Made by a program: the position numbers and the translations under genes. The notes beneath the pieces were generated by a model. That model saw only the letters and a program-made list of their open reading frames with translations. It was not told the DNA's origin and made no database searches. This document shows positions 13,617 through 28,143 of a stretch of DNA of 64,000 nucleotides, piece by piece. Source of the DNA: Escherichia coli (lineage in GTDB: Bacteria > Pseudomonadota > Gammaproteobacteria > Enterobacterales > Enterobacteriaceae); assembly GCF_003991155.1 (NCBI RefSeq), contig NZ_CP031295.1, one strand, 5' to 3'. Position 1 is the first letter of the stretch, and every line of letters starts with the position of its first letter.

Positions 13617-14432
13617 TTAGAAAAACTCATCGAGCATCAAATGAAACTGCAATTTATTCATATCAGGATTATCAATACCATATTTTTGAAAAAGCCGTTT
13701 CTGTAATGAAGGAGAAAACTCACCGAGGCAGTTCCATAGGATGGCAAGATCCTGGTATCGGTCTGCGATTCCGACTCGTCCAACATCAATACAACCTATT
13801 AATTTCCCCTCGTCAAAAATAAGGTTATCAAGTGAGAAATCACCATGAGTGACGACTGAATCCGGTGAGAATGGCAAAAGCTTATGCATTTCTTTCCAGA
13901 CTTGTTCAACAGGCCAGCCATTACGCTCGTCATCAAAATCACTCGCATCAACCAAACCGTTATTCATTCGTGATTGCGCCTGAGCGAGACGAAATACGCG
14001 ATCGCTGTTAAAAGGACAATTACAAACAGGAATCGAATGCAACCGGCGCAGGAACACTGCCAGCGCATCAACAATATTTTCACCTGAATCAGGATATTCT
14101 TCTAATACCTGGAATGCTGTTTTCCCGGGGATCGCAGTGGTGAGTAACCATGCATCATCAGGAGTACGGATAAAATGCTTGATGGTCGGAAGAGGCATAA
14201 ATTCCGTCAGCCAGTTTAGTCTGACCATCTCATCTGTAACATCATTGGCAACGCTACCTTTGCCATGTTTCAGAAACAACTCTGGCGCATCGGGCTTCCC
14301 ATACAATCGATAGATTGTCGCACCTGATTGCCCGACATTATCGCGAGCCCATTTATACCCATATAAATCAGCATCCATGTTGGAATTTAATCGCGGCCTC
14401 GAGCAAGACGTTTCCCGTTGAATATGGCTCAT
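13617..14432 (-). CDS. aph(3')-Ia: Aminoglycoside 3'-phosphotransferase APH(3')-Ia
   Basis: 271 aa MSHIQRETSCSRPRLNSNMDADLYGYKWARDNVGQSGATIYRLYGK... = Tn903 aphA1. Confidence 0.95.
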   Translation of the reverse strand: MSHIQRETSCSRPRLNSNMDADLYGYKWARDNVGQSGATIYRLYGKPDAPELFLKHGKGSVANDVTDEMVRLNWLTEFMPLPTIKHFIRTPDDAWLLTTAIPGKTAFQVLEEYPDSGENIVDALAVFLRRLHSIPVCNCPFNSDRVFRLAQAQSRMNNGLVDASDFDDERNGWPVEQVWKEMHKLLPFSPDSVVTHGDFSLDNLIFDEGKLIGCIDVGRVGIADRYQDLAILWNCLGEFSPSLQKRLFQKYGIDNPDMNKLQFHLMLDEFF

Positions 14433-14519
14433 AACACCCCTTGTATTACTGTTTATGTAAGCAGACAGTTTTATTGTTCATGATGATATATTTTTATCTT
14501 GTGCAATGTAACATCAGAG

Positions 14520-15339
14520 GGCACTGTTGCAAATAGTCGGTGGTGATAAACTTATCATCCCCTTTTGCTGATGGAGCTGCACATGAACCCATTCAAAGGC
14601 CGGCATTTTCAGCGTGACATCATTCTGTGGGCCGTACGCTGGTACTGCAAATACGGCATCAGTTACCGTGAGCTGCAGGAGATGCTGGCTGAACGCGGAG
14701 TGAATGTCGATCACTCCACGATTTACCGCTGGGTTCAGCGTTATGCGCCTGAAATGGAAAAACGGCTGCGCTGGTACTGGCGTAACCCTTCCGATCTTTG
14801 CCCGTGGCACATGGATGAAACCTACGTGAAGGTCAATGGCCGCTGGGCGTATCTGTACCGGGCCGTCGACAGCCGGGGCCGCACTGTCGATTTTTATATC
14901 TCCTCCCGTCGTAACAGCAAAGCTGCATACCGGTTTCTGGGTAAAATCCTCAACAACGTGAAGAAGTGGCAGATCCCGCGATTCATCAACACGGATAAAG
15001 CGCCCGCCTATGGTCGCGCGCTTGCTCTGCTCAAACGCGAAGGCCGGTGCCCGTCTGACGTTGAACACCGACAGATTAAGTACCGGAACAACGTGATTGA
15101 ATGCGATCATGGCAAACTGAAACGGATAATCGGCGCCACGCTGGGATTTAAATCCATGAAGACGGCTTACGCCACCATCAAAGGTATTGAGGTGATGCGT
15201 GCACTACGCAAAGGCCAGGCCTCAGCATTTTATTATGGTGATCCCCTGGGCGAAATGCGCCTGGTAAGCAGAGTTTTTGAAATGTAAGGCCTTTGAATAA
15301 GACAAAAGGCTGCCTCATCGCTAACTTTGCAACAGTGCC
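14520..15339 (+). mobile_element. IS26 (copy 3, 820 bp)
   Basis: IS26 IRs at both ends; intact tnp26. Confidence 0.95.
14583..15287 (+). CDS. tnp26: IS26 transposase Tnp26
   Basis: 234 aa; one substitution versus copy 1 (DFYISS vs DFYLSS). Confidence 0.95.
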
Positions 15340-15660
15340 ACGAACAGCACCTTCAGATAATGGTATCCAGTCAATTTGTGCCTTCATAATACCAGTCATC
15401 GCTCCATGTCGTTCCGGAGAGCACCACACCATTCCTTCAGACCAGCGAACCAGTTCACGCAACTCCATAACTTTTGGATGTGATTCCGGTGCATCATCAG
15501 GAAGTGGAAGGCCAGATGGATTAAAAATGCGGACGTCTGCGCCCATTGCAGTTAACAAACGGCCTGCTTCCTCTGTCGCCAGTCGACTGTATGAGCGCTC
15601 ACGAACTGAGCCATAAAGCATTAGAATACGAGGTGGGTGAGATATTGCCGGTATCCCCAT
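15340..15660 (-). pseudogene. arsH: arsH (NADPH-dependent FMN reductase), 3'-truncated by IS26
   Basis: N-terminal approx 107 aa [27 protein letters not shown]... ArsH-like; reading frame runs into IS26. Confidence 0.6.
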
Positions 15661-16248: not shown

Positions 16249-17328
16249 ATGAATAGTTGGATTCCTATGTTGCAAGATGCCGCAGAGATGTTTGTTTTTC
16301 TGGCTGTTGAGCTTTCATTGCTGTTTATTGTCATTAGTGCCGGTGTGAGCCTGATAAGGCAAAAAGTCCCGGATCATAAAATTCAGCAGATGATGGGGGC
16401 GAGAAAAGGTAAGGGGTATCTGTTGGCCTCGTTGCTGGGAGCCGTTACCCCTTTCTGTAGTTGCTCAACAATTCCAATGTTGCGAGGATTGTTGTCTGCG
16501 AAAGCGGGGTTTGGTCCGACACTCACTTTTTTGTTTGTTTCACCGTTGCTTAATCCCATTATCGTGGGACTAATGTGGGTTACCTTTGGCTGGAAAGTAA
16601 CTTTGCTGTATGCGATCATCGCTGCCGGTGTTTCAGTTCTTTCCAGTATTATACTGGATTATTTAGGGTTTGAACGTCATATTGTTGAATACAAAAATTC
16701 AGTATCAGGTAGTTGCGCCACCAAGTGCGGTGATTCTGAAGCTTCGGTAAAAACGAATTGCTGTACTTCATCAGCAAAAACCATAATTAACTTAAAGACA
16801 GTAAAGAAAGAGCAAAATATATCGGCGTGTTGTCCCTCAATTCTATCAGAAAAATCTTCTGAAAGTTGTTGCAGCAGCGAGAGTCAGGGCAACAGAAATC
16901 TCACAATGAATGCCACCTCTGGTCTAATAAAATTAGCAATGAAAGATGCCTTACAACAGTTTAAGGATGTTCTGCCTTATCTTTTGTTAGCTATATTAAT
17001 AGGTTCATTTATTTATGGTTTTATCCCTTCAGAGTGGATTGCAGCTCATGCCGGTGCAGATAATCCATTAGCCATACCGCTCAGTGCTGTTGTTGGTATT
17101 CCGCTGTATATTCGTGCTGAGGCCGTAATACCACTTGCATCAGTTCTGATGACTAAAGGTATGGGCCTCGGAGCTTTAATGGCCTTGATAATCGGTAGTG
17201 CTGGAGCGAGTCTGACAGAAGTAATATTGCTTAAATCAATGTTCAGAATGCCCATGATAATCGCATTTCTGACGGTTATCTTAGGTATGGCAATCCTTAT
17301 GGGATATTTAACGCAATTTTTGTTTTAA
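16249..17328 (+). CDS. arsP: ArsP-like organoarsenical efflux permease
   Basis: Multi-TM permease with the ArsP signature TPFCSCSTIP and a Cys-rich loop (CC, ACCP, SCCSS). Confidence 0.65.
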   Translation: MNSWIPMLQDAAEMFVFLAVELSLLFIVISAGVSLIRQKVPDHKIQQMMGARKGKGYLLASLLGAVTPFCSCSTIPMLRGLLSAKAGFGPTLTFLFVSPLLNPIIVGLMWVTFGWKVTLLYAIIAAGVSVLSSIILDYLGFERHIVEYKNSVSGSCATKCGDSEASVKTNCCTSSAKTIINLKTVKKEQNISACCPSILSEKSSESCCSSESQGNRNLTMNATSGLIKLAMKDALQQFKDVLPYLLLAILIGSFIYGFIPSEWIAAHAGADNPLAIPLSAVVGIPLYIRAEAVIPLASVLMTKGMGLGALMALIIGSAGASLTEVILLKSMFRMPMIIAFLTVILGMAILMGYLTQFLF

Positions 17329-17620
17329 TCCTTATGAGAAGGGATTTTTGCGTCAATATGAAAATCCCTTCAGTCTTACGGCGCGGTTCTAACGGTGTAG
17401 CCCTTTTATTGTTATCCCTAAACCACCTCCTAGGGAGGTGGTGATTGATCCTGTAAGGCTATAGCCTGAAGAATGCCCATGTCGGAATATCTCTGCTTAC
17501 TGACCACAAGTAAAAGCAACTGTTCTACCAGCAGCCTGCAAAAAACATATAAGCTGATCTGAAAGGAATACTTCACAATGAATATTATTGTGTTTGTAAC
17601 CTGCTGTTATCGCGATGAAA

Positions 17621-18238
17621 TTACCGTTCAGTTTTTTCGGTTGACGCGGACTGTTCCTGCATGGTTTTCATCTTTAGCTTCTGTTGTTCCCTTACTGCCA
17701 GCCAGCGTCTGGCATTCAGCGCATCGCATTCTGATACCTGACCTGCTGGTAGTCCATCCAGTCCATAACGAGGGATACCTGCGACAGCAGTACGCTGCAG
17801 ATATACCTGTCGGGTGGTGATGCAGGATATTGCACAGGACCATTCATCCAGTGTCAGTTCTGTCTCAGGGTGTTCTGTCAGGAATGCGGCAAAATCATTG
17901 GTTATGCCAATTTTCAGTGGAAGAAATCCTCCGCCTTCTGCGCGAAGATGGGGAAACAGAGACTTCACTTTTTCCACGCAATCGTGAGTAAATTCATGAG
18001 TCCAATGAGGCTGGCGTGGAAAACGGCGTCTTTTCTTTTTTTTCTTACAGGCAGGAGCATCAGGGGTATGAGTATCGACGGCAGGCGAACTGATCCCCTC
18101 AGAGACTGATTCTTCCATCTTTTCTGTCTCTGAACGTGCGATAACACCTGTTTTTTCAGATAAGGAAGGGGGTAAAAGAGTGCGACGTTTTTTCACCATA
18201 ATGATGGGTGTTTTCTTTTCTTCCTGATATTTCCCCAT
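17621..18238 (-). CDS. ProQ/FinO-domain RNA-binding protein
   Basis: Lys/Arg-rich tract (KKKKKRRR) followed by FLPLKIGITNDFAAFL...RYGLDG, resembling ProQ/FinO domain. Confidence 0.45.
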   Translation of the reverse strand: MGKYQEEKKTPIIMVKKRRTLLPPSLSEKTGVIARSETEKMEESVSEGISSPAVDTHTPDAPACKKKKKRRRFPRQPHWTHEFTHDCVEKVKSLFPHLRAEGGGFLPLKIGITNDFAAFLTEHPETELTLDEWSCAISCITTRQVYLQRTAVAGIPRYGLDGLPAGQVSECDALNARRWLAVREQQKLKMKTMQEQSASTEKTER

Positions 18239-18525
18239 AAAAACCTCTACGATGTGTTCTTATATAATAATATATATCATATTTTCACGATTAACATAAT
18301 ATCTTCGTTAAGAAAACAACAGAGCAAAATTTGTTTTTTTTTGACAGGCATGAAATGAGCCAGCATAATTATATTAATTATTATCCCAAATGAGTTTTTG
18401 TATTTGCTCATTCGGGATGGTTGGATATTTTAAGTTATATCTACTGTATCATTCTCAGGTAATCGTTCCATTAAATCAGAAACTACGGGCTGTAACCAGT
18501 CAGTGACTTCACTCACATACTGATG

Positions 18526-19992
18526 TCATTCGGGATGCCTGGAGGCCAGATCCATCACTCGTGTTAACCCGGACGGACGATCAATGCCCAATTTAGTTAA
18601 AATATTCGAGATATAATTATGAGCATCAAGTTCAACTCTGATATCCCTTGCTGCTTCGATTATTTCTAAATATTCGCCACCCAATCCGTCCAGTGGGACA
18701 TTTGTAATAAGATAATGAATGTATTGTTCAGGCTTAACCCCATTTGGGAGATTAAATTGTTTTACTTTTCCTTCCGCTGCCGCTTTTAACTCATAAGTTC
18801 GTGATTCTGTGCCGGTGAAAACTTTATCACGAGCAGTTTTCTTTTCATTTTCTGTGGAATATTTATCGCCATCAAGAATATAAAGTTTACCAGATAGATT
18901 GTCACCACGAATAAGGGTACTGGCAAGTAGAGTGAATGCGTTTGAAGCTGCGCCAAATTTAAATATTTTTACATATTTGCTGGCCTTAAGTGAAGAACAT
19001 ATTTTATTTATTATGGCAACAGCTAAGTCATCTTCTACATATATTTCAATAGGCGTCGTTGATTCACCTGTTAATCTGTTTATAGCATCAGGTTTTGTTT
19101 CTTCAAATGAATAACTACGGCCTTGAATGTTTACGACGTGTCTTATATTTATCTTGTCTGATAAAGTGGTTATCATTTCTCTATGGGTAGTAAAGATGAT
19201 TTGTTTGTTTTTATCTTTGGCATGAGATGATATGACTTCTATTAACTTTTTCAATGCTTCGTCATGCAACAATAAATCTAATTCATCAATTAATATTAAG
19301 GCGTTCTTGTCCGCTTTCAATATTGTTTCCAGAATTAAAAATATCTTTTGCTCTCCTGCGCTCATACTCAATGATGAGTAGGCCAGTCCCCCTGACTCAA
19401 CTCCAATCAATATTTTTCCATTGGGTTGTTGATGCTGATTGAAACTTGTGTATGGTTTATTAAGTATATAGGAGGCGTAATGAAGAATGTTTGTTATTAA
19501 ATCATTACTGACACTGCTGGTTTCATACTGAATATTATTCTTTTTTTCTGATTCTATTATAGGAACACATTTATCAATGCCAAGATAGTAAACTTCTCTT
19601 AAAGGACGACGAGCATAAATCTGAATCCATCGTGAGCCTCGAATATCTGCTTTTCCATAATTTTTCAATTCATTTTCAATCATTACCCCATCTTTACGAT
19701 AAGTTAAATTTACAATGAAGTCACTGCCGTTCCATTCAGCATGTGGGCTGCGTGGAAAAAAATGCATTAACCGATGGTCTTCACCGGGGAAACCTTCTTC
19801 AGGCATGTATATGCTTGCTATAGCATGGAGTATTGTTGATTTTCCGCTTCCATTTGGACCTAAAATTGCGGTTAACGCATGAGGTTTAAAAATAATCTCG
19901 TTTAATCCATTTATACATTTTAGTTTGTTAATTTTAATGGAGTTCAAGACTTGACCAGTAATGGTTTTTTTATTTTTTTCTGCCATTTTCAA
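18526..19992 (-). CDS. OLD-family ABC ATPase-TOPRIM nuclease (defence-associated), apparently solo
   Basis: Walker A GPNGSGKST, signature/Walker B LSMSAGEQK...ILIDELDLLLHDE, H-loop FTTH; C-terminal TOPRIM-like IEIYVEDD and YILDGDKY; AT-rich. Confidence 0.55.
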   Translation of the reverse strand: MKMAEKNKKTITGQVLNSIKINKLKCINGLNEIIFKPHALTAILGPNGSGKSTILHAIASIYMPEEGFPGEDHRLMHFFPRSPHAEWNGSDFIVNLTYRKDGVMIENELKNYGKADIRGSRWIQIYARRPLREVYYLGIDKCVPIIESEKKNNIQYETSSVSNDLITNILHYASYILNKPYTSFNQHQQPNGKILIGVESGGLAYSSLSMSAGEQKIFLILETILKADKNALILIDELDLLLHDEALKKLIEVISSHAKDKNKQIIFTTHREMITTLSDKINIRHVVNIQGRSYSFEETKPDAINRLTGESTTPIEIYVEDDLAVAIINKICSSLKASKYVKIFKFGAASNAFTLLASTLIRGDNLSGKLYILDGDKYSTENEKKTARDKVFTGTESRTYELKAAAEGKVKQFNLPNGVKPEQYIHYLITNVPLDGLGGEYLEIIEAARDIRVELDAHNYISNILTKLGIDRPSGLTRVMDLASRHPE

Positions 19993-20248
19993 ATCCTAGC
20001 ATTATGTTGGGGGGATTCACCATGTAATTCAGAAACATATAACTGTGAACAGGGGATATATCAAATCCTTTTAATATTCTATTTGGCACAGTATTCTACA
20101 TCAGGCCTCTTTTATGCTACAGACTTTTTGAGATGTCTGTAATTTTAGACTTAATGTTATGACTGATCATATCTCCTATCCACTGGTGGCGCAGGAAAGT
20201 TAACCAGCTGCCACCATGGGATGATGTGTAAACCGTGCTGGTATGTTT

Positions 20249-20839
20249 TTACGGGGTGACGCTTTCATTAACCTGTACACGAACCTCCATTCCGGCATCG
20301 TGACAGGCCTGCAGCCACTGCGCCACTTCCAGCGGATCGCCCTCCAGGCGTACCACCCTGCCTTCTTTATTCCATAACTGCAGACAGGTGCTGCCGTCGA
20401 GACGTACCACAAAATCCCCACGGCAGGCCTGATACGTTATGCCGTTCAGCTGCACCGCCAGATCAGTGGCAGAAGTGCCGTCTGCGGGCAGACCTGCTGC
20501 CGGGACCAGCGGCAGTACGACGACTTCTGCCGCACGCTGTTCTGCCCGGAGGCGGTCCTGTTCTGCCAGCAGCAGAGGCTGTGCCACGGCCCGGCCGGCG
20601 TCCGTCAGCTCGACAGCCAGCTGCAGATTCGGGGCGCGCAGGGTACGCAGCCAGCCGGCATCCTCCAGACGACGGCAGGAGGCGCGCAGGTTTGGCCCGT
20701 AGACCGGGGCTTCCCCGCTTCGCTCCAGCACCCGTTCCAGGTCCCGCGTCAGCACGGGGCCCGGCCGTTTTTCATCAAGCGCAGCCAGCACAATCAGCAC
20801 TCTCCGCTGCAGTGGCGACGGTCGGCGGCTCTGGGTCAT
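20249..20839 (-). CDS. hypothetical protein, GC-rich, possible winged-helix N-terminus
   Basis: 196-aa ORF, GC-rich codon usage distinct from neighbours; translationally coupled to upstream 85-aa ORF. Confidence 0.4.
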   Translation of the reverse strand: MTQSRRPSPLQRRVLIVLAALDEKRPGPVLTRDLERVLERSGEAPVYGPNLRASCRRLEDAGWLRTLRAPNLQLAVELTDAGRAVAQPLLLAEQDRLRAEQRAAEVVVLPLVPAAGLPADGTSATDLAVQLNGITYQACRGDFVVRLDGSTCLQLWNKEGRVVRLEGDPLEVAQWLQACHDAGMEVRVQVNESVTP

Positions 20840-21096
20840 TACCTGTCATCCTCCGGCCAGATGAGGTTTCTGAGGCGCTGAAAGTCGGCGTCAATGAGCT
20901 CCTGTCTCTTTATGGCATTCATTGAGGCATAGCCATTTATGGCCAGTTCATGCCAGAAGATCAGCACGGCTCCGGCTTTGGCTGACTCGCAGAGATAAAT
21001 CGCGCCCTGGCTGTCCAGATTGCATTCCCGGATGCGTTTTTCCGCAAACCGGGTCAGTTGTTCATAGCTGAGTGAAAACACCCTTTCTTCATCCAT
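20839..21096 (-). CDS. hypothetical small protein (85 aa)
   Basis: ORF whose stop overlaps start of 20249-20839 gene. Confidence 0.35.
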   Translation of the reverse strand: MDEERVFSLSYEQLTRFAEKRIRECNLDSQGAIYLCESAKAGAVLIFWHELAINGYASMNAIKRQELIDADFQRLRNLIWPEDDR

Positions 21097-21449
21097 CCTG
21101 CACGCTCCATCTGATAATGTACTGACAGGTAAAAATAATATCCTGCATGATTTGTGTGCTCATGATTTCTGATAATATCAGATATTGTTTTATCATCAAT
21201 GATGAAAACCATATCTGATATGATTTTATATATATTTCTTAATTATCATATCATTTGCGTCTTTTCTGCCGCGCAGATCCAGTTTCCGGCTAAGTCGGAT
21301 CGACCTAATCTTTGTTTCTGATATGAACACCTCGGAGAGGTGTAAGCAATGGTATAAACGAAATGTATTATGTATCTGCATCACAGCATGCGGGCACATT
21401 TTGCGGAAGGATATGAATCCCCCCGGAATAACTGGCAAAGGACAGATAA

Positions 21450-23588
21450 ATGGACATTGAAATACGCCACTGCAATAACATCGTACGAGCACATATCACC
21501 CTCACTGCCGATAAACTGAACATTAAGTTTGCGCCAAATGGTACTGGAAAAAGTACGCTGTCACGGGCCATAAGCTGTGCGGCGCGGGACGACATTCAGG
21601 GACTACAGGCACTGATGCCCTTCCGGCTGCGCGGAGAAAACCCCGATAGCACCGGGCCCATTGTCATCGGTGCTGACGGGATTGGGGACGTGATGTGCTT
21701 CAACGAGGAGTACGTCAGTCAGTTTACGTTCCAACCGGACGAGCTCATCAGTGATAGCTTTAATATTCTTATCCGCAATCAAGCCCATGCGGAAAGAGAG
21801 CGTGAAATAGAAGAAATGACGCAAAAGATCCGGGCTGTTTTCACGGATCACACTGAGCTGAACTCTCTGATAGACCATCTACAGGAACTCAGTAATGCTT
21901 TCAGATCAACCAGTTCCGGGATTTCACGTTCTTCAACCGGCATGAGAGGTCTGTCAGGCGGAAATAAAATACACCACATTCCGGCTGGTCTTGAGAACTA
22001 TCAACCCTACATCCGCAGTGAACGCCGCGTGGAATGGATTGACTGGCAGACAAAGGGACTCGAGTTTTCGCCCCTTTCGGATGGCTGCTGTCCGTTCTGT
22101 ACCGGTGATATCACGGGAAAGGAAGCACAAATTCGCCAAGTCAGAGAGGAATACGATAAATCCACCATTAAAAACCTGACCGCTATCATCAGACTGGTGG
22201 AAAACCTCGGTAATTACCTGACGGAGAGCGCCAGAGAACGCCTTCTGGCCATTACTATGCTTCAGAACGGTCCGGAAGCCGAACATATCGAGTACCTAGT
22301 GGCGTTGAAACGCCAGACCGATACGCTGACAGAGAAACTCACTGCGCTGAGAGGCCTGAATGTTTTCAGCCTGCAGGAACAGCAGAACGTTCGGGAGGTG
22401 CTCACTGCCAGGTTGATTGACCTGCAGTTCTTCCCTGATCTGCAATCCGAACTCATGCAGGGGATCACCGACAGACTGAACGCGGCCCTTATGGACCTGA
22501 TAAACCTTGCCGGACCGCTGCAGGGAAAAATTAACCGGCACCGGGACAGCATGATCCGGCTGATCGCACAGCACAAAACAAACATCAATAATTTCCTCAC
22601 TTATGCAGGCTATAAATACAGGGTGGATATAGCCGGCGAGGGAGAGCAGAGAAAACTCAGGCTACGACACATAGATTTTGACGGGTACGTCAGCGGCGGT
22701 AGCCAGCATCTCAGCTATGGAGAACGGAACGCCTTTGCGATTGTGTTATTCATGTATGAATGCCTGTCAAAAAACCCGGGACTGATTATCCTTGATGATC
22801 CCATATCTTCTTTTGATAAAAACAAGAAGTTTGCCATTCTTGAAATGCTGTTCAGACGTGCAAGTGGTGAATGCCTGAAGAACCGGACTGTACTTATGCT
22901 GACGCATGACGTGGAGCCTGTGATTGACACGCTGAAGTCAGTCAGAAGGTTGTTCAGTAATCAGGTGACCGCCTCCTGCCTGCGCCTGTCTGCTGGAGTC
23001 ATAGAAGAATTACCTGTTAACGACGGCGATATCATGACATTCATGCAGATCTGCAAATCCATCACCGCGTCAGCAGACTGTGAGGAGATCATTAAGCTCA
23101 TCTATCTTCGTCGCTACTTTGAAATCGTTGACGAACGTGGTGATGCTTATCAGCTTCTATCCAATCTATTCCATCGACGCGTCGTCCCGCTGGATTATCG
23201 CGAGCCTGCCGCTGCGGGCTCGGGCTATCCCAAAATGGCTCCTGAGAAAATTCAGCAGGCCTTGCGGGATATCCGGGAGTATGTGGACAGTTTTGATTAC
23301 CCGCGACTTCAGGCTCTCGTCAGCAGCCCAGATGAAATAAAAAACCTGTACCGTCGCTGTCGTAACGGCTATGAAAAACTGCAGGTATTCCGTTTACTGG
23401 AACTGGATCAGGACCATCCGGTAATACGAAAATTCGTTAACGAAACGTACCACATTGAAAATGAGTTCATCTGTCAACTAGATCCGTCCAGATTCGATCT
23501 CATCCCGGAGTACGTGATTATGGAATGTGACAAGCTCATCGCCCTGCCACCGGCAGCAAACCAGAGCTCGGTTGCCCGTATCGCTTGA
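21450..23588 (+). CDS. SMC/Rad50-like ABC ATPase with CxxC hook and C-terminal effector-like domain (RloC/PrrC-like candidate)
   Basis: Walker A APNGTGKST (aa~30); CCPFC (aa~223) in predicted coiled-coil insert; signature LSYGERNAF, Walker B LIILDDP, H-loop LMLTHD (aa~440-495); approx 210-aa C-terminal domain. Confidence 0.5.
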   Translation: MDIEIRHCNNIVRAHITLTADKLNIKFAPNGTGKSTLSRAISCAARDDIQGLQALMPFRLRGENPDSTGPIVIGADGIGDVMCFNEEYVSQFTFQPDELISDSFNILIRNQAHAEREREIEEMTQKIRAVFTDHTELNSLIDHLQELSNAFRSTSSGISRSSTGMRGLSGGNKIHHIPAGLENYQPYIRSERRVEWIDWQTKGLEFSPLSDGCCPFCTGDITGKEAQIRQVREEYDKSTIKNLTAIIRLVENLGNYLTESARERLLAITMLQNGPEAEHIEYLVALKRQTDTLTEKLTALRGLNVFSLQEQQNVREVLTARLIDLQFFPDLQSELMQGITDRLNAALMDLINLAGPLQGKINRHRDSMIRLIAQHKTNINNFLTYAGYKYRVDIAGEGEQRKLRLRHIDFDGYVSGGSQHLSYGERNAFAIVLFMYECLSKNPGLIILDDPISSFDKNKKFAILEMLFRRASGECLKNRTVLMLTHDVEPVIDTLKSVRRLFSNQVTASCLRLSAGVIEELPVNDGDIMTFMQICKSITASADCEEIIKLIYLRRYFEIVDERGDAYQLLSNLFHRRVVPLDYREPAAAGSGYPKMAPEKIQQALRDIREYVDSFDYPRLQALVSSPDEIKNLYRRCRNGYEKLQVFRLLELDQDHPVIRKFVNETYHIENEFICQLDPSRFDLIPEYVIMECDKLIALPPAANQSSVARIA

Positions 23589-23749
23589 GCCACTGTTTTT
23601 GCCGCCGGAAGATAGGCTTTAGCTCCCTGATAGTCTGATCTTCGAAGATACCCTACAGTTTAGGACCGCTTACTGTAGATATCTGTTAAAACAGCCCGTA
23701 TACGGGCTGTTTCTTGGTGCCCTTATCTCCTGACTTTGAAAAGAGTGTC

Positions 23750-24166
23750 TTACTTCACCCAGTCTTCCAGCACCAGGTCAGGCACTCGCTCAAATTCTCT
23801 TGTATTATTCGTTACCAGTATCGCCCCGGCGGCGATGGCGTGCCCGGCAATCGCCGTGTCGTTCGGGCCGATCGGCGTCCCGGCCAGCCGCAGTGCCACT
23901 TTAATCTTCGTGGTGGCGTCTACTGCGGCGCGATCCCAGGGCAGGATGGCATCGAGGCGGGCGCAGAATTCATCGACCAGTTGGACGTGACGTGGTGAGG
24001 CCTTTGGGCCGGTAGCCCCGAAGCGCATTTCAGAGTAGGTGATGGCCGAGACCACTATACGGTGGCCGCGTAGCACCGCCTGCTCCAGACGCTTCAGGAC
24101 GGCTTCTGGCTGTTCACGCATGATGAACGAGCAGATACAGGTATCAAGCATATAAGTCTTGTTCAC
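23750..24166 (-). CDS. vapC: VapC PIN-domain toxin
   Basis: 138 aa MLDTCICSFIMREQP...; PIN-domain acidic residues; overlaps vapB stop. Confidence 0.85.
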   Translation of the reverse strand: MNKTYMLDTCICSFIMREQPEAVLKRLEQAVLRGHRIVVSAITYSEMRFGATGPKASPRHVQLVDEFCARLDAILPWDRAAVDATTKIKVALRLAGTPIGPNDTAIAGHAIAAGAILVTNNTREFERVPDLVLEDWVK

Positions 24167-24393
24167 AGGTTAAATCGCCCTTCGTCGCTGACAACATCCT
24201 CGCGCTCCGCCATAAAATCTGGATCGGCTTTTTCGTACTCTAGGAATGATCCCCAGGTTGGCCGGACGGGGCGCAGGATGATGCTGTCCCCTTCCCGGAC
24301 GATCTCGAGCTCGCTCACCCCCTCAAAATCCAGATCACGAGGCAGACGGATGGCGCGGTTGTTGCCATTTTTGAATATCGATACGGTTCTCAT
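24163..24393 (-). CDS. vapB: VapB antitoxin (AbrB/SpoVT-type)
   Basis: 76 aa MRTVSIFKNGNNRAIRLPRDL...; 4-nt overlap with vapC. Confidence 0.85.
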   Translation of the reverse strand: MRTVSIFKNGNNRAIRLPRDLDFEGVSELEIVREGDSIILRPVRPTWGSFLEYEKADPDFMAEREDVVSDEGRFNL

Positions 24394-24407
24394 GTTTTTT
24401 CTCTCCC

Positions 24408-24540
24408 GAGCATATGGATATGTGAAACATATCCGGAATATTCAAAGCACCGGGTGTGTGCATATGTTTAGTATAGGCAGATGTGTGGCATATGTATAGC
24501 GGTAGCATATGTAGATGCCAGGCATATGTTTAGCATATCT
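24408..24540. promoter_or_regulatory. array of about six GCATATGT repeats upstream of vapB (putative vapBC operator)
   Basis: Repeated CATATG-core motifs spaced about 15-25 bp immediately upstream of vapB start. Confidence 0.4.
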
Positions 24541-24688
24541 CTATTTCTTTCTTTTTTATCGGAGATCCGAAAAAAGGTTAAGTCTGATCTTAATGAAATT
24601 ACATGGAATTTGAGTGATATCCCTTACCCCACATCTCCAACGTGCTATCTATAAAGGTTGATACATCTCACTTAGTCCGGAGGTTGTT

Positions 24689-24979
24689 ATGAGCGTCAAA
24701 ATCACAGGTTTAGACAAAATGCAGAAACAGCTAAAAGAGGTTGAGAGAGCAACAGAGGCATTAAACGGAAGTTATGATGTCCACTTCGATGCTAACGATC
24801 CTGTCAGCATTGAGAACGCGATTCAGGAAGCCTATTCCATGGTGTACGAACGCGCTTCTGGTTATGCCACTAATCCGATGGTCAGCCCATTAATCGAACA
24901 CATGAAAGAAAATCTGCGCCAACAGATTCTGGACAGAGCAGAACAACAAAGACAGGAGAGCGGGCAGGATGGCAATTGA
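24689..24979 (+). CDS. hypothetical small protein (96 aa), first gene of TIR-like cassette
   Basis: ORF with RBS-like GGAGG upstream; 11-nt overlap with next gene. Confidence 0.45.
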   Translation: MSVKITGLDKMQKQLKEVERATEALNGSYDVHFDANDPVSIENAIQEAYSMVYERASGYATNPMVSPLIEHMKENLRQQILDRAEQQRQESGQDGN

Positions 24980-25868
24980 TATCTTTCAGTCACTTAAAAA
25001 TTGCGTATTCGACCTTCAGCGCGCTGACGTTCAGAACTATCAGCAACCTCTTAAGCAATTGGCCCGGCTCTTGAACTCAGAGAATCTGCAGTCAGTTAAT
25101 GCACATCTGACCCGCAATGTTGAACTTGATACCTTTCTGGCCAGGAGTGAAGATACTGAATCCAGCATGGCTGGTTCCGCTGTTCTACAGTGGCCTGATG
25201 AGCCCGCTGATATTTTGGGCCTGAAGTTGCTGCTGATCGAGAAAATGGCAGACGATAACAATTTTTCCTTTAATTTCTGTCATACATTTTTCTATGATCG
25301 AAACATTATTGAATCCATTCGAAAATTCACGTCGTCATTAGTTGCCCCGTTCGTGCGCGATTACCAGTTGTATGTGGAAAACCAACACGATCCTGAGCCT
25401 GCAGTGTTTCGGCCGGTTTCCCGAAAAATTTTTATTGTTCATGGCCATGATAATGATGCCCTTCAGTCTGTTGCCCGTTTTATATCCCGGATAGGTCTTG
25501 AGGAAATCATTCTTTCAGAACGTCCTGACGGCTCCAGGACGATTATCGAGAAATTTGAAGCAGAGTCAGGGGATGTCAGTTTTGCCATCGTGCTGATGAC
25601 GCCCGACGATAGCGGCAGTGCTCTGGCATCTGAAAGCACACGTCTCCGCGCACGCCAGAATGTCCTGTATGAGCTCGGATATTTCGCCGGGAAGCTTGGA
25701 CGCGGGAAAGTACTTGTACTCAGGAAGGGAGATATCGAAATCCCTTCAGATCTTGCCGGGGTTCTCTATACCGAGCTTGATGAGCATGGTGGATGGAAAC
25801 GCAAACTGCTGAGTGAGCTTGCGTATGCCGGTGTTCCTTTTGACAAGGATAAAGCATTAAGCGCCTGA
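24969..25868 (+). CDS. TIR-like-domain protein (PF10137-type C-terminus) with unknown N-terminal domain
   Basis: C-terminal motifs KIFIVHGHD, AIVLMTPDD, RARQNVLYELGYFAGKLGRGKV, EIPSDLAGV typical of predicted nucleotide-binding TIR-like proteins. Confidence 0.55.
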   Translation: MAIDIFQSLKNCVFDLQRADVQNYQQPLKQLARLLNSENLQSVNAHLTRNVELDTFLARSEDTESSMAGSAVLQWPDEPADILGLKLLLIEKMADDNNFSFNFCHTFFYDRNIIESIRKFTSSLVAPFVRDYQLYVENQHDPEPAVFRPVSRKIFIVHGHDNDALQSVARFISRIGLEEIILSERPDGSRTIIEKFEAESGDVSFAIVLMTPDDSGSALASESTRLRARQNVLYELGYFAGKLGRGKVLVLRKGDIEIPSDLAGVLYTELDEHGGWKRKLLSELAYAGVPFDKDKALSA

Positions 25869-25917
25869 TCTCCTTCATTTAGTAAGAAAAAGGCCGCTAA
25901 GCGGCCTTAATTTTTGG

Positions 25918-28143
25918 TCAGTCGTCATTTTCCAGCGCTGTTTTGAGCGCTTCCTGCTCCGGAGTCAGCTCGTTGCCGGACAGCATAACCTTCAACTTCT
26001 CTTCGACTGCTGGCCAGTCATCAAAGAACGGACTGACCTGGTCACGCGCAATCCGGCGATATGCCCCTCGGTGGGAGCTGAAGACACTGGTCTGTAATCG
26101 TATCAACAGGTTAACAAGGCCTTCATCAGTGGTAGTAACTTCTCTGACCCATTGCTTCACGGTTTCACCTGAACTCATGTCTCTCCAGGCGTAGAGATAC
26201 CCGAGAAGAGACTTGCGCAGGAGAAGCTGTTGCTGAAGTTCTGGTTGATTCATACGTTCCGCAAACCTGTCACGCAACCGTTCCGTAATATCGCGACTGA
26301 AAAGAGCGTCTGAAGGCGAAGGTACTGCATTCTGAGCAAGTCCATGTTCCCAGATAAGATCCCGCATAAAATCGGCTATCCAGAACGGCGAAGCACCCGT
26401 AACGATCAGTTTTTCCATAAGCGTGATCGTTCTGGTCTCATCAATATCCTGCATATGCTTCAGCAGATGCCGTACAACCTCATTAATGGCCATTTCACGC
26501 AGGGAAAACCATGGGTTACGGATACTGAAGCGAGTGCTCACCTCATCGGTGTGATCGAAGAAAAAATGAACCAGTCCTGCGCACTCTTCGAAATTACGTT
26601 CTCTTATCAGGCCTGGAGTCAGTCTGCTCAGTATATGTTCAAACCAGGTTCCGGACAGACTGCCCACACTGTTGATTTTTGAGAGCAGCAATTCAGAAAG
26701 CTGCTGCTGTTTTTCCGATACGCCAGCCTGTTCAAAAAGCTGTCTGAAGAATTCAGGTGGCAGAACATTCTGTGGTGAGGAGAAGGCAAAATAATATCGC
26801 CAGTGCGTCAGGCTGCTGAGTCGTTTACCGGTCGTCTGGATATGACGAAAATCCTCACTGACGGGCTCAAAAAGATTCAGATATTCATCATTATGTCCAC
26901 TGATACCTGGGATCCAGTCTGCAAGTGTCAGAAACGAGTCTGCATTTGATGCCCTGAACGTCTTCATACATCTGATAAGCCCCTCCCGGAAGTCTGCTTT
27001 CTCTCCGTCAGAAAGCATACCCTGACCGGTTTCAATCACGGACCGTTCTGTCAGGTAATGCTCTGTCCAGTCATACAGAGCCGGGTTTGTCACCCGTATA
27101 AGCTGAAGCAGGCACAAATCAGGGAAATAAACAAAATCCCGCATCCCCGGATAAAGAAAAATCAGGGAATTAATGGCCTGATGGATTTCCCGTGGCGTCG
27201 AAAGTGCGGCACCATAGGTATCAGTCACCGCGATGAGATCCCTTACCATTCCAGAGTCTGGCGGTTGATTATTAATTTGCTGATATAGAGCCTCAGCCCG
27301 CTGGCGAAATTCATTACGTAAATCAAAGGCTTCAGGTCGGGGTAATTTAAAACTAAGCTGAATGATTTTCTGGAGATAACGGCTGCCATCTTCGATATTC
27401 AGCGCATGTTCAACGGCATGAGTGATAATCTGCCTGTCATAACAGAGAATATGGGTAAAGCGGGGCAGATCGGCTACTGCACGCACAAGCCTGAACACTT
27501 CCGCCACCTGGGATGGCTCCAGTCGGTCCAGATCATCCATGACAACAATGAACTTCAGATCCAGACTCACCAGTTGTCCTGCAATTTCAGCCCGAAGCTT
27601 TGTCGTGGTTTTCTGATCAACAGCCAGACGGCTGTCTGAAAATACCTTTATTCCGCCTGCTATCCAGTTAATAATGCTGGAAAACTGTCCGATATATTGA
27701 ACCAGTGGAAGGACGCGCGATGAAGTATCCTGAGCATACTCAATCACTTTTTGAGCTTCCGGTGACAACAGATATTTACGCCAGAGCTTTTTGAAGCCCT
27801 TCGGGGGATAGCGTATTTCCATTTCCTGCTGGATAACCGTGGCAACCGGAAGAAAGAGCGCTTCAACCGGACTGCCGCCACTCAGCCAGGGAGAAATATG
27901 CAGCACATGCGTGTGAGCATCTTTTTTCAGGGCAAGGTTTCTCAGGATCAGATTAAGGAGGCTTGTTTTACCCGATCCCCATGCACCTTCTATTCCGACA
28001 ACATTTGAAGCCTCCAGAGGAAGAGTAAGGATGGAACGGGATATATTTTCTGCGATATTACCGAAACCGTATCGATCCTCAGGTACATCTTCAACTGCCG
28101 CATCAAGCCCTTTCTGGTTCCACAGCTGCCTCAGTATCTTCAT
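25918..28143 (-). CDS. KAP family P-loop NTPase
   Basis: 741 aa; Walker A GAWGSGKTS, Walker B FIVVMDDLDRL; large size typical of KAP NTPases. Confidence 0.6.
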   Translation of the reverse strand: MKILRQLWNQKGLDAAVEDVPEDRYGFGNIAENISRSILTLPLEASNVVGIEGAWGSGKTSLLNLILRNLALKKDAHTHVLHISPWLSGGSPVEALFLPVATVIQQEMEIRYPPKGFKKLWRKYLLSPEAQKVIEYAQDTSSRVLPLVQYIGQFSSIINWIAGGIKVFSDSRLAVDQKTTTKLRAEIAGQLVSLDLKFIVVMDDLDRLEPSQVAEVFRLVRAVADLPRFTHILCYDRQIITHAVEHALNIEDGSRYLQKIIQLSFKLPRPEAFDLRNEFRQRAEALYQQINNQPPDSGMVRDLIAVTDTYGAALSTPREIHQAINSLIFLYPGMRDFVYFPDLCLLQLIRVTNPALYDWTEHYLTERSVIETGQGMLSDGEKADFREGLIRCMKTFRASNADSFLTLADWIPGISGHNDEYLNLFEPVSEDFRHIQTTGKRLSSLTHWRYYFAFSSPQNVLPPEFFRQLFEQAGVSEKQQQLSELLLSKINSVGSLSGTWFEHILSRLTPGLIRERNFEECAGLVHFFFDHTDEVSTRFSIRNPWFSLREMAINEVVRHLLKHMQDIDETRTITLMEKLIVTGASPFWIADFMRDLIWEHGLAQNAVPSPSDALFSRDITERLRDRFAERMNQPELQQQLLLRKSLLGYLYAWRDMSSGETVKQWVREVTTTDEGLVNLLIRLQTSVFSSHRGAYRRIARDQVSPFFDDWPAVEEKLKVMLSGNELTPEQEALKTALENDD

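Follow-up and report, generated by a model that had tools for sequence, protein, structure and literature searches.

Putative autorepressed winged-helix cassette ydfA-ydeA in the backbone of IncI and IncF-type plasmids

The gene pair and its closest described relatives

Operons of the acr/Aca kind begin with a small variable gene, continue with a conserved helix-turn-helix (HTH) gene and have inverted-repeat operators over a strong promoter. The ydfA-ydeA pair, which we analyzed in a 64,000-nucleotide stretch of Escherichia coli DNA (contig NZ_CP031295.1 of assembly GCF_003991155.1; hereafter the window), seems comparable to these operons in its architecture only: the YdfA variants are mutually homologous, and the pair belongs to a plasmid backbone rather than to a phage. 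It has been named as a backbone pair before, without a characterized function. We consider it fairly probable that ydfA-ydeA is a self-regulated two-gene cassette of the IncI/IncF-type plasmid backbone, which encodes a DNA-binding autorepressor (YdeA) and a small partner (YdfA). This reading is based on the winged helix of YdeA together with palindromes at the ydfA promoter, one of which covers the -10 hexamer. New here are the prediction of an operator array, the division of YdeA into domains, the sharp edge of the module and the placement of the flanking ATPase genes as cargo around a constant cassette.

Both open reading frames (ORFs) have the coordinates that the original prediction, made by a model from the sequence alone, had given, and lie on the minus strand. 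ydfA (20839-21096) encodes an 85-residue protein that is predicted to form a three-helix bundle and matches no family, and ydeA (20249-20839) encodes a 196-residue protein in which a winged helix and a long helix precede a β-rich C-terminal domain. RefSeq annotates the two products as hypothetical proteins (WP_000343085.1 and WP_000194575.1), and the names YdfA and YdeA are given in UniRef and several GenBank records and are used for the locus in two publications (PMC12111858, PMC3438092). The host plasmid is an R64-like IncI1 plasmid. The region matches plasmid R64 (NC_005014, 34323-35523) at 100% identity, with the pair itself at R64 34472-35319; the window plasmid differs from R64 at 18 positions across 7.6 kb and is thus a relative of R64 rather than R64 itself. 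Identity and synteny place the two ORFs as the ydfA/ydeA pair named in the annotation of R64, ColIb-P9 and pS88. The original prediction had expected to fall if homology searches led to a plasmid backbone pair of known function; they did lead to a named backbone pair, but one that has no established function.

Several lines of evidence establish that both ORFs are genuine genes. The sense frame is the sole frame open from end to end in all eight lineages compared. The pairwise ratio of nonsynonymous to synonymous substitution rates (dN/dS) is 0.17-0.6 for ydeA (dS up to about 1) and 0.17-0.48 for ydfA (dS up to about 3), the AlphaFold2 models of the two proteins are confident (mean local confidence scores, pLDDT, of 87.5 and 88.4), and transcripts of relatives have been detected by quantitative reverse transcription PCR (qRT-PCR) in the ColV plasmid pS88 (PMC3438092) and by RT-PCR in the IncI1 plasmid pUA1135 (PMC12111858). 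Stop-free frames come cheaply in ydeA because its GC content is 65%. The strand opposite ydeA is nearly stop-free as well, with one frame open over 189 of 197 codons (20249-20839, plus strand) and antisense ORFs of 87 and 114 residues within the gene; in a long Klebsiella ydeA allele, an antisense frame is open over 369 of 404 codons. The antisense ORFs were rejected as genes since the frames that are open in R64-type alleles are broken in Klebsiella alleles, and the openness is most likely a by-product of the 65-70% GC content.

The two genes meet at the sequence TAATG with a stop/start overlap of 1 nt, and a Shine-Dalgarno sequence for ydeA, GGAGG (20850-20854, minus strand), precedes the ydeA ATG by 10 nt, within the 3´ end of ydfA (junctions of ten loci compared). 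An overlap of 1, 4 or 13 nt is kept in nine further plasmid lineages. This arrangement points to translational coupling, as the original prediction had proposed, and YdfA would accordingly be made in a fixed proportion to YdeA through the overlapping stop and start.

The model of YdeA comprises a winged helix (residues 9–78; 20606-20815, minus strand), a long helix (residues 80–104) and a β-rich domain of seven strands and one helix (residues 107–190; 20270-20521, minus strand). The winged helix, already suspected in the original prediction, is modeled with confidence, is the most conserved part of the module and resembles in fold the MarR, HxlR and PadR repressors. YdeA would bind 17-bp palindromes of the form ATCATATC-N-GATATGAT through this winged helix, probably as a dimer formed through the long helix. 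The β-rich domain belongs to no known family and is exchanged between lineages. YdfA would be an accessory three-helix protein, acting either as a modulator of YdeA or as an independent effector.

Searches of Pfam, NCBIfam, PADLOC and PHROGs with both proteins gave nothing significant except phrog_19460, a family of unknown function that matches the YdeA winged helix. Sequence and profile searches of the PDB returned only weak MarR and DtxR winged-helix matches for YdeA and no match for YdfA or the YdeA C-terminal domain, and the three-helix bundle of YdfA has no informative structural neighbor. According to the model, YdeA has the winged helix-turn-helix (wHTH) fold of the MarR family. However, the window YdeA gives no match to the family models (PF01047/PF12802), the best match among its homologues, to MarR_2, stays below the curated threshold (E = 0.016; 15.8 bits, with a cut-off of 27), and MarR chains in the PDB are matched at E = 0.011-0.017 over about 40 residues. 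YdeA further differs from MarR, PadR and HxlR proteins in that it lacks the MarR-type N-terminal dimerization helix, carries an additional β-rich C-terminal domain of 85 residues, is preceded by the gene of a small, obligatorily co-translated partner and reaches the threshold of no Pfam or NCBIfam model. The order of winged helix, helical connector and small β-rich C-terminal domain is that of DtxR/IdeR, but the profile matches are non-significant (E = 0.06-1) and confined to the winged helix and the next helix, YdeA lacks the metal-site residues, and nothing indicates that the C-terminal domains are related. Like BrxR/CapW, YdeA combines a wHTH with an extra β-rich domain, is encoded upstream of a defence gene in one R64 operon and is bordered by changing defence cargo; the WYL domain that follows the wHTH in BrxR/CapW is absent from YdeA. 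AbiEi_4 (PF13338) scores 14.3 bits on YdeA against a cut-off of 25, and the neighbor of ydeA encodes an 85-residue helical protein, not an AbiEii nucleotidyltransferase, which places the pair outside AbiE. Taken together, the cassette appears to resemble a winged-helix autorepressor operon while belonging to no defined family.

The YdeA family is small, with 220 representatives found in an exhaustive search of 1.84 billion representative proteins. A profile search with the C-terminal domain alone recovered only family members and no new architectures, and Pfam searches with the C-terminal domains of the family gave no match. Some homologues reach 300-430 residues through a further C-terminal extension of no known family. 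A gene fusion as the source of this extension was rejected, because the extension is unrelated to the 164-residue protein encoded after ydeA in Klebsiella. For YdfA, 275 related proteins were found, and all of the matches listed have enterobacterial sources. When seven YdeA homologues at 28-56% identity were examined, six had no YdfA-like neighbor at all. The L026 homologue (55% identity) is accompanied by a very divergent YdfA-like partner with the motifs NYSELL and WYHLA..G.APE, which is not detected by BLASTP with the R64 protein.

This pattern of inheritance bears on the possibility that ydfA-ydeA is a toxin-antitoxin (TA) pair, in which one protein is toxic, while the other neutralizes it and represses the operon, so that plasmid-free cells are killed. 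The pair shares with type II TA modules two small overlapping genes, a putatively autoregulated promoter and, as in HigBA and MqsRA, a DNA-binding gene in second position; it is very widely distributed on plasmids, genuine TA modules (VapBC, ParDE, CcdAB, RES, GNAT/DUF1778) often lie nearby, and the AbiEi_4 match, though weak, has E = 0.045. In contrast, none of the toxin and antitoxin models of Pfam, NCBIfam and PADLOC reaches its threshold, and neither YdfA nor the YdeA C-terminal domain matches a type II toxin fold in these databases, PHROGs or the PDB. The strict co-inheritance of type II TA genes is also lacking, as most of the YdeA homologues examined are solitary and single-gene plasmid remnants occur. 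One such remnant, L032, retains ydfA with its native promoter beside a ydeA truncated by IS66; it is weak evidence, because a second match to the pair in the plasmid record could supply YdeA in trans. Moreover, the whole operon has been deleted and cloned in a related plasmid without reported difficulty (PMC12111858). The addiction pair that the original prediction had offered as one of two options is therefore unlikely, whereas its other option, a regulator, gains from the winged helix and from the conserved palindromes that overlap the promoter.

Promoter and putative operators upstream of ydfA

A consensus scan predicts a sigma-70 promoter of ydfA at 21172-21199 (minus strand), consisting of TTGATG, a 16-nt spacer and TATTAT preceded by TG. 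Its position agrees with a published BProm prediction that puts the promoter 103 bp and the start site 69 nt upstream of ydfA (PMC12111858). The conserved region upstream of ydfA contains three 17-bp palindromes that approximate ATCATATC-N-GATATGAT, as well as an extra half-site. Putative operator 1 (21208-21224) lies upstream of the -35 hexamer, has a single mismatch to the palindrome and keeps its position in eight loci. In the IncI-gamma/K loci L003 and L017, its palindrome is perfect. Putative operator 2 (21172-21188), the right arm of which is the predicted -10 hexamer, is perfect in the Klebsiella locus L019. Putative operator 3 (21135-21151), downstream of the predicted start, carries four mismatches in the window and one in L007. 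The extra half-site GATATGAT (21245-21252) is conserved 36-37 bp upstream of operator 1, and the GATATGATAAT block at this half-site is nearly invariant across the aligned upstream regions.

The operators are spaced 36-37 bp from center to center; relative to the ydfA ATG, eight plasmid lineages have the sites at -128, -92, -55 and about -156. None of 2000 shuffles attained the observed palindrome count. Invariant columns make up 62% of the half-sites, compared with 30% of the spacers, and the palindrome that is perfect differs between lineages, as in compensation. Binding of YdeA to this array, which extends across the ydfA promoter and over its -10 hexamer, would repress ydfA-ydeA. In R64-type plasmids, the cassette would also set the promoter-distal transcription of ibfA, the ATPase gene downstream of ydeA, and of the FinO-family gene that adjoins it.

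Exact GATATGAT half-sites are also found upstream of YdeA homologues at 43-56% identity in unrelated contexts (L026, L024 and L013) and are missing from the upstream DNA of homologues with no more than 35% identity, which indicates that gene and operator motif move together. Even when three mismatches are tolerated, the motif has no other occurrence in the window or in about 120 kb of R64. A role of YdeA as a global regulator of the plasmid was rejected because the motif is confined to the ydfA promoter in both. An Rfam search of 17000-24500 gave no match.

Distribution and mosaic structure of the cassette

YdeA is encoded in at least 5000 of the 72,556 plasmids in PLSDB, YdfA in at least 4242 and ibfA in 740. 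Among enterobacterial plasmids that have been sequenced, the share with the pair is at least 7%. DNA of the pair is present in 2125 of 5426 complete E. coli genomes and is nearly always plasmid-borne. A phage origin was rejected, as 50,697 phage records yielded one weak partial match and no full-length match. In a comparison of IncI1 R64-type, ColIb-P9, IncI-gamma/K, ColV-type IncF and Klebsiella IncFIB(K)/FII plasmids, the constant unit consists of ydeA, ydfA and about 200 bp upstream of ydfA. At its upstream edge, blastn homology stops sharply at 21290-21301 in every lineage, and a conserved element, GATCCG-N14-(C/T)GGATC-TGCGCGG (21269-21301), has its single match in the window at this edge. 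The element could be a recombination or insulation site.

The boundary element and the regular array raise the alternative of a structural nucleoprotein site, in which YdeA coats the repeats for partition, multimer resolution or insulation of the cargo hotspot. Four evenly spaced sites 36-37 bp apart would suit such a function, and the module lies 0.6-10 kb from the integrase/rfsF and ParA genes. However, the sites fall on the promoter, and no NTPase that could serve as a partner is regularly encoded beside the module. Moreover, plasmids that carry the module differ in their partition systems, and some records contain up to three matches, which a centromere would make incompatible. We regard this alternative as very improbable.

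The cargo beyond the upstream edge differs from plasmid to plasmid. In R64 it is PDC-S06. In ColIb-P9 it is a DUF4238 gene followed by the ColIb ibfA gene (ibfA/abi), a 345-nt gene that is distinct from the DUF6404 gene adjoining ydeA. Klebsiella plasmids carry ParDE, ArsR-ars or a RES protein; another IncI1 plasmid has PDC-S06 and VapBC and then CBASS, and one IncI-gamma/K plasmid has no cargo between the edge and the integrase. Downstream of ydeA, a convergent DUF6404 gene is present in Col-type plasmids and ibfA in R64, and in Klebsiella a 164-residue protein and an Hha homologue are encoded in the same orientation as the pair. In the four Klebsiella IncFIB(K)/FII loci L005, L007, L018 and L019, ydfA-ydeA heads a same-strand run of small genes for the 164-residue protein (annotated as DNA-binding), a 122-residue protein, an Hha-domain protein and more small ORFs, which suggests that the cassette promoter drives different downstream cargo in these plasmids.

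The first 94 bp after ydeA in the window (20155-20248) are homologous to Col-type plasmids. They include what is left of the DUF6404 gene (ybaA) at its 3´ end and mark the breakpoint of the ibfA segment. By blastn, window 20155-21290 aligns to L003 5905-7039, and the DUF6404 gene ends at L003 5981. The persistence of this homology suggests that the AT-rich ibfA segment replaced older DNA beside a pre-existing ydeA. Both flanking ATPase genes are missing from most of the compared plasmids that carry the pair and, to judge from this comparison of sequences, are later insertions, variable cargo beside a constant cassette. The pair had originally been taken for a separately acquired, GC-rich module between AT-rich ATPase genes. 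The pieces do differ in history, but in the reverse direction, with the pair as the constant part. The compositional claim is half right, because only ydeA is GC-rich (65.1%, up to 0.70 over 300 nt) and only ibfA is AT-rich (35.2% GC); ydfA (51.6%) and the PDC-S06 gene (50.0%) are close to the mean of the whole window (50.4%).

The cassette itself is a mosaic, in which the winged-helix coding segment and the upstream operator block are most conserved and ydfA and the C-terminal domain vary. Between the window and an IncI-gamma/K plasmid, YdeA is 97% identical and YdfA only 61%. In Klebsiella plasmids, nearly the same YdeA is found with YdfA of three types, which share 82%, 40% and 34% identity with that of the window, and one of these types is also paired with a 403-residue YdeA. 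The part of ydeA that encodes the C-terminal domain has diverged so far in Klebsiella alleles that blastn no longer detects it, whereas the N-terminal half retains 81-84% identity; the C-terminal domain has been swapped between lineages independently of the N-terminal half. In a ColV-type IncF plasmid of E. coli (L004 6001-6767, NZ_CP032258), YdeA is shortened to 169 residues by an in-frame deletion of 27 residues, and the sequence preceding ydfA has been exchanged from about -70 outwards. This variant is either decaying or rewired.

A variable ydfA beside a conserved winged-helix segment is also what an anti-defence operon of the acr/Aca kind would produce, with YdfA as a fast-diverging small effector, which for example inhibits a defence or competition function of the host or of a rival plasmid, and YdeA as the conserved autorepressor of a strong promoter. 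The order of a small variable gene and a conserved HTH gene, the palindromic operators over the promoter and the location of the cassette at the edge of a defence-cargo hotspot are consistent with this idea, as are YdfA alleles that drop to 34-61% identity beside a near-identical YdeA winged helix and operators, and YdeA homologues that occur without YdfA or with very divergent partners. On the other hand, positive selection is not indicated by the dN/dS of YdfA, which at 0.25-0.48 stays below 1, the upstream partners examined are all mutually homologous whereas acr genes are typically unrelated, the pair lies outside the plasmid leading region (R64 map), where anti-defence genes concentrate, and YdfA has no known target. 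We therefore hold an anti-defence operon to be improbable.

Defence genes beside the cassette and the link to ibfA

In the window plasmid the cassette is embedded in a defence island, since IbfA and PDC-S06 are encoded beside it and VapBC, PDC-S35 and PifA further along. The downstream ATPase (18526-19992) is the IbfA of R64 and matches HEC-04 in PADLOC (4e-42); a ProQ/FinO-family gene adjoins ibfA. HEC-04 has been validated as a single-gene ABC-ATPase/TOPRIM defence and is too toxic to induce (bioRxiv 10.1101/2024.01.29.577857), which makes tight control plausible. The divergent upstream ATPase (21450-23588) is the PADLOC candidate PDC-S06 (5e-286). The pair itself has no significant match in PADLOC.

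In pUA1135, ydfA, ydeA, ibfA and the ProQ-like gene were found on one transcript by RT-PCR, and phage resistance was restored to an efficiency of plating of 0.05 by ibfA alone and of 0.01 by the whole operon (PMC12111858). A terminator-like site was not found after ydeA on the coding strand of the window, which suggests that the R64-type transcript runs on into ibfA and the FinO-family gene. It is thus probable that regulated read-through from the cassette adds to the transcription of ibfA. Judged by its distribution, this link is a secondary arrangement that is specific to R64-type plasmids.

A closer bond has to be considered, in which the pair is a dedicated regulator or sensor of IbfA (HEC-04) abortive infection and switches it on during infection. 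The co-transcription, the five-fold stronger protection by the whole operon than by ibfA alone and the toxicity of induced HEC-04 would all fit, and the unclassified C-terminal domain of YdeA could be the sensor. However, ibfA is carried by far fewer plasmids than either gene of the pair, was inserted at a breakpoint directly after ydeA and confers defence by itself, and the pairs of Col-type, IncI-gamma/K and Klebsiella plasmids have other downstream genes or none. The pair is neither required for the IbfA/HEC-04 system nor co-distributed with it, and we consider a dedicated regulator of IbfA very unlikely.

Several observations weigh against an autorepressed cassette. The DNA binding and repression by YdeA are deduced from sequence, and given the likeness of the half-site TATGAT to a -10 hexamer and the high AT content of the region, promoter-like sequence could account for some of the repeat signal. 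The profile and Pfam searches assign no function to the C-terminal domain of YdeA. YdfA alleles (34-87% identity) reassort freely with YdeA alleles, so that there is no sign of co-variation from an interaction of the two proteins. The deletion in the 169-residue YdeA of L004 takes away the first β-strand and one half of the long helix, and about 500 ColV-type IncF plasmids carry a YdeA of this type, as estimated from a tblastn identity band. In L004, the one example examined, operators 1 and 2 are replaced, yet both ORFs are intact. Finally, ibfA has its own promoter and acts alone (PMC12111858), and the link of the cassette to defence may therefore be incidental.

The pair is carried by the main IncI and IncF vehicles of resistance and virulence genes, yet has been left without a family assignment; the annotation of plasmids would gain from a protein family that is defined together with its predicted operator. 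Together with its sharp upstream boundary, the pair marks a plasmid site that exchanges defence and TA cargo. In R64-type plasmids, its promoter feeds the IbfA abortive-infection gene, and YdeA, if a true repressor, would offer a handle on the expression of this gene. Should YdeA be merely a local autoregulator, the finding is useful but ordinary. A more far-reaching version, which we think doubtful, is that YdfA is a diversifying anti-defence or inter-plasmid effector under Aca-like control by YdeA, or that the YdeA C-terminal domain senses invasion and derepresses the operon. If this were true, a common cassette of resistance plasmids would be a switch at the edge of a defence hotspot.

The names of the genes invite confusion. 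A genome-wide association study of IncK2 plasmids (PMC12987596, 2026) interpreted a plasmid ydeA as the chromosomal YdeA, an L-arabinose exporter of the major facilitator superfamily. This is probably a name collision, because ydeA on IncK-type plasmids is the winged-helix gene. Nothing relevant was found in the literature on ibfB, a complementation group of classical ColIb genetics.

The defence-type cargo of the window occupies 21450-28143, between the cassette and the integrase/rfsF region. Beyond PDC-S06, it includes VapBC (23750-24393), a 96-residue ORF with a PDC-S35 protein that has a CAP12/Pycsar-type TIR domain (24689-25868), and PifA (25918-28143; PADLOC 3e-290). Other plasmids have DUF4238, CBASS, ParDE or RES at this site. 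On the other side of the cassette, a C-to-T difference from R64 at 18526 (plus strand) changes a Trp codon of ibfA (18430-19992, minus strand) to a stop codon, so that the protein ends 32 residues short of its full 518, and the IbfA/HEC-04 defence gene of the window plasmid may be impaired. Further downstream (13617-15660), an ArsH-like ORF (FMN_red domain), which has 160 residues in the window and 216 in R64, adjoins ORFs for an aph(3')-type phosphotransferase and an IS26-type transposase. From the shortened ORF and its IS26-type neighbor, the arsenic/Tn10 region of R64 appears to be rearranged in the window plasmid.

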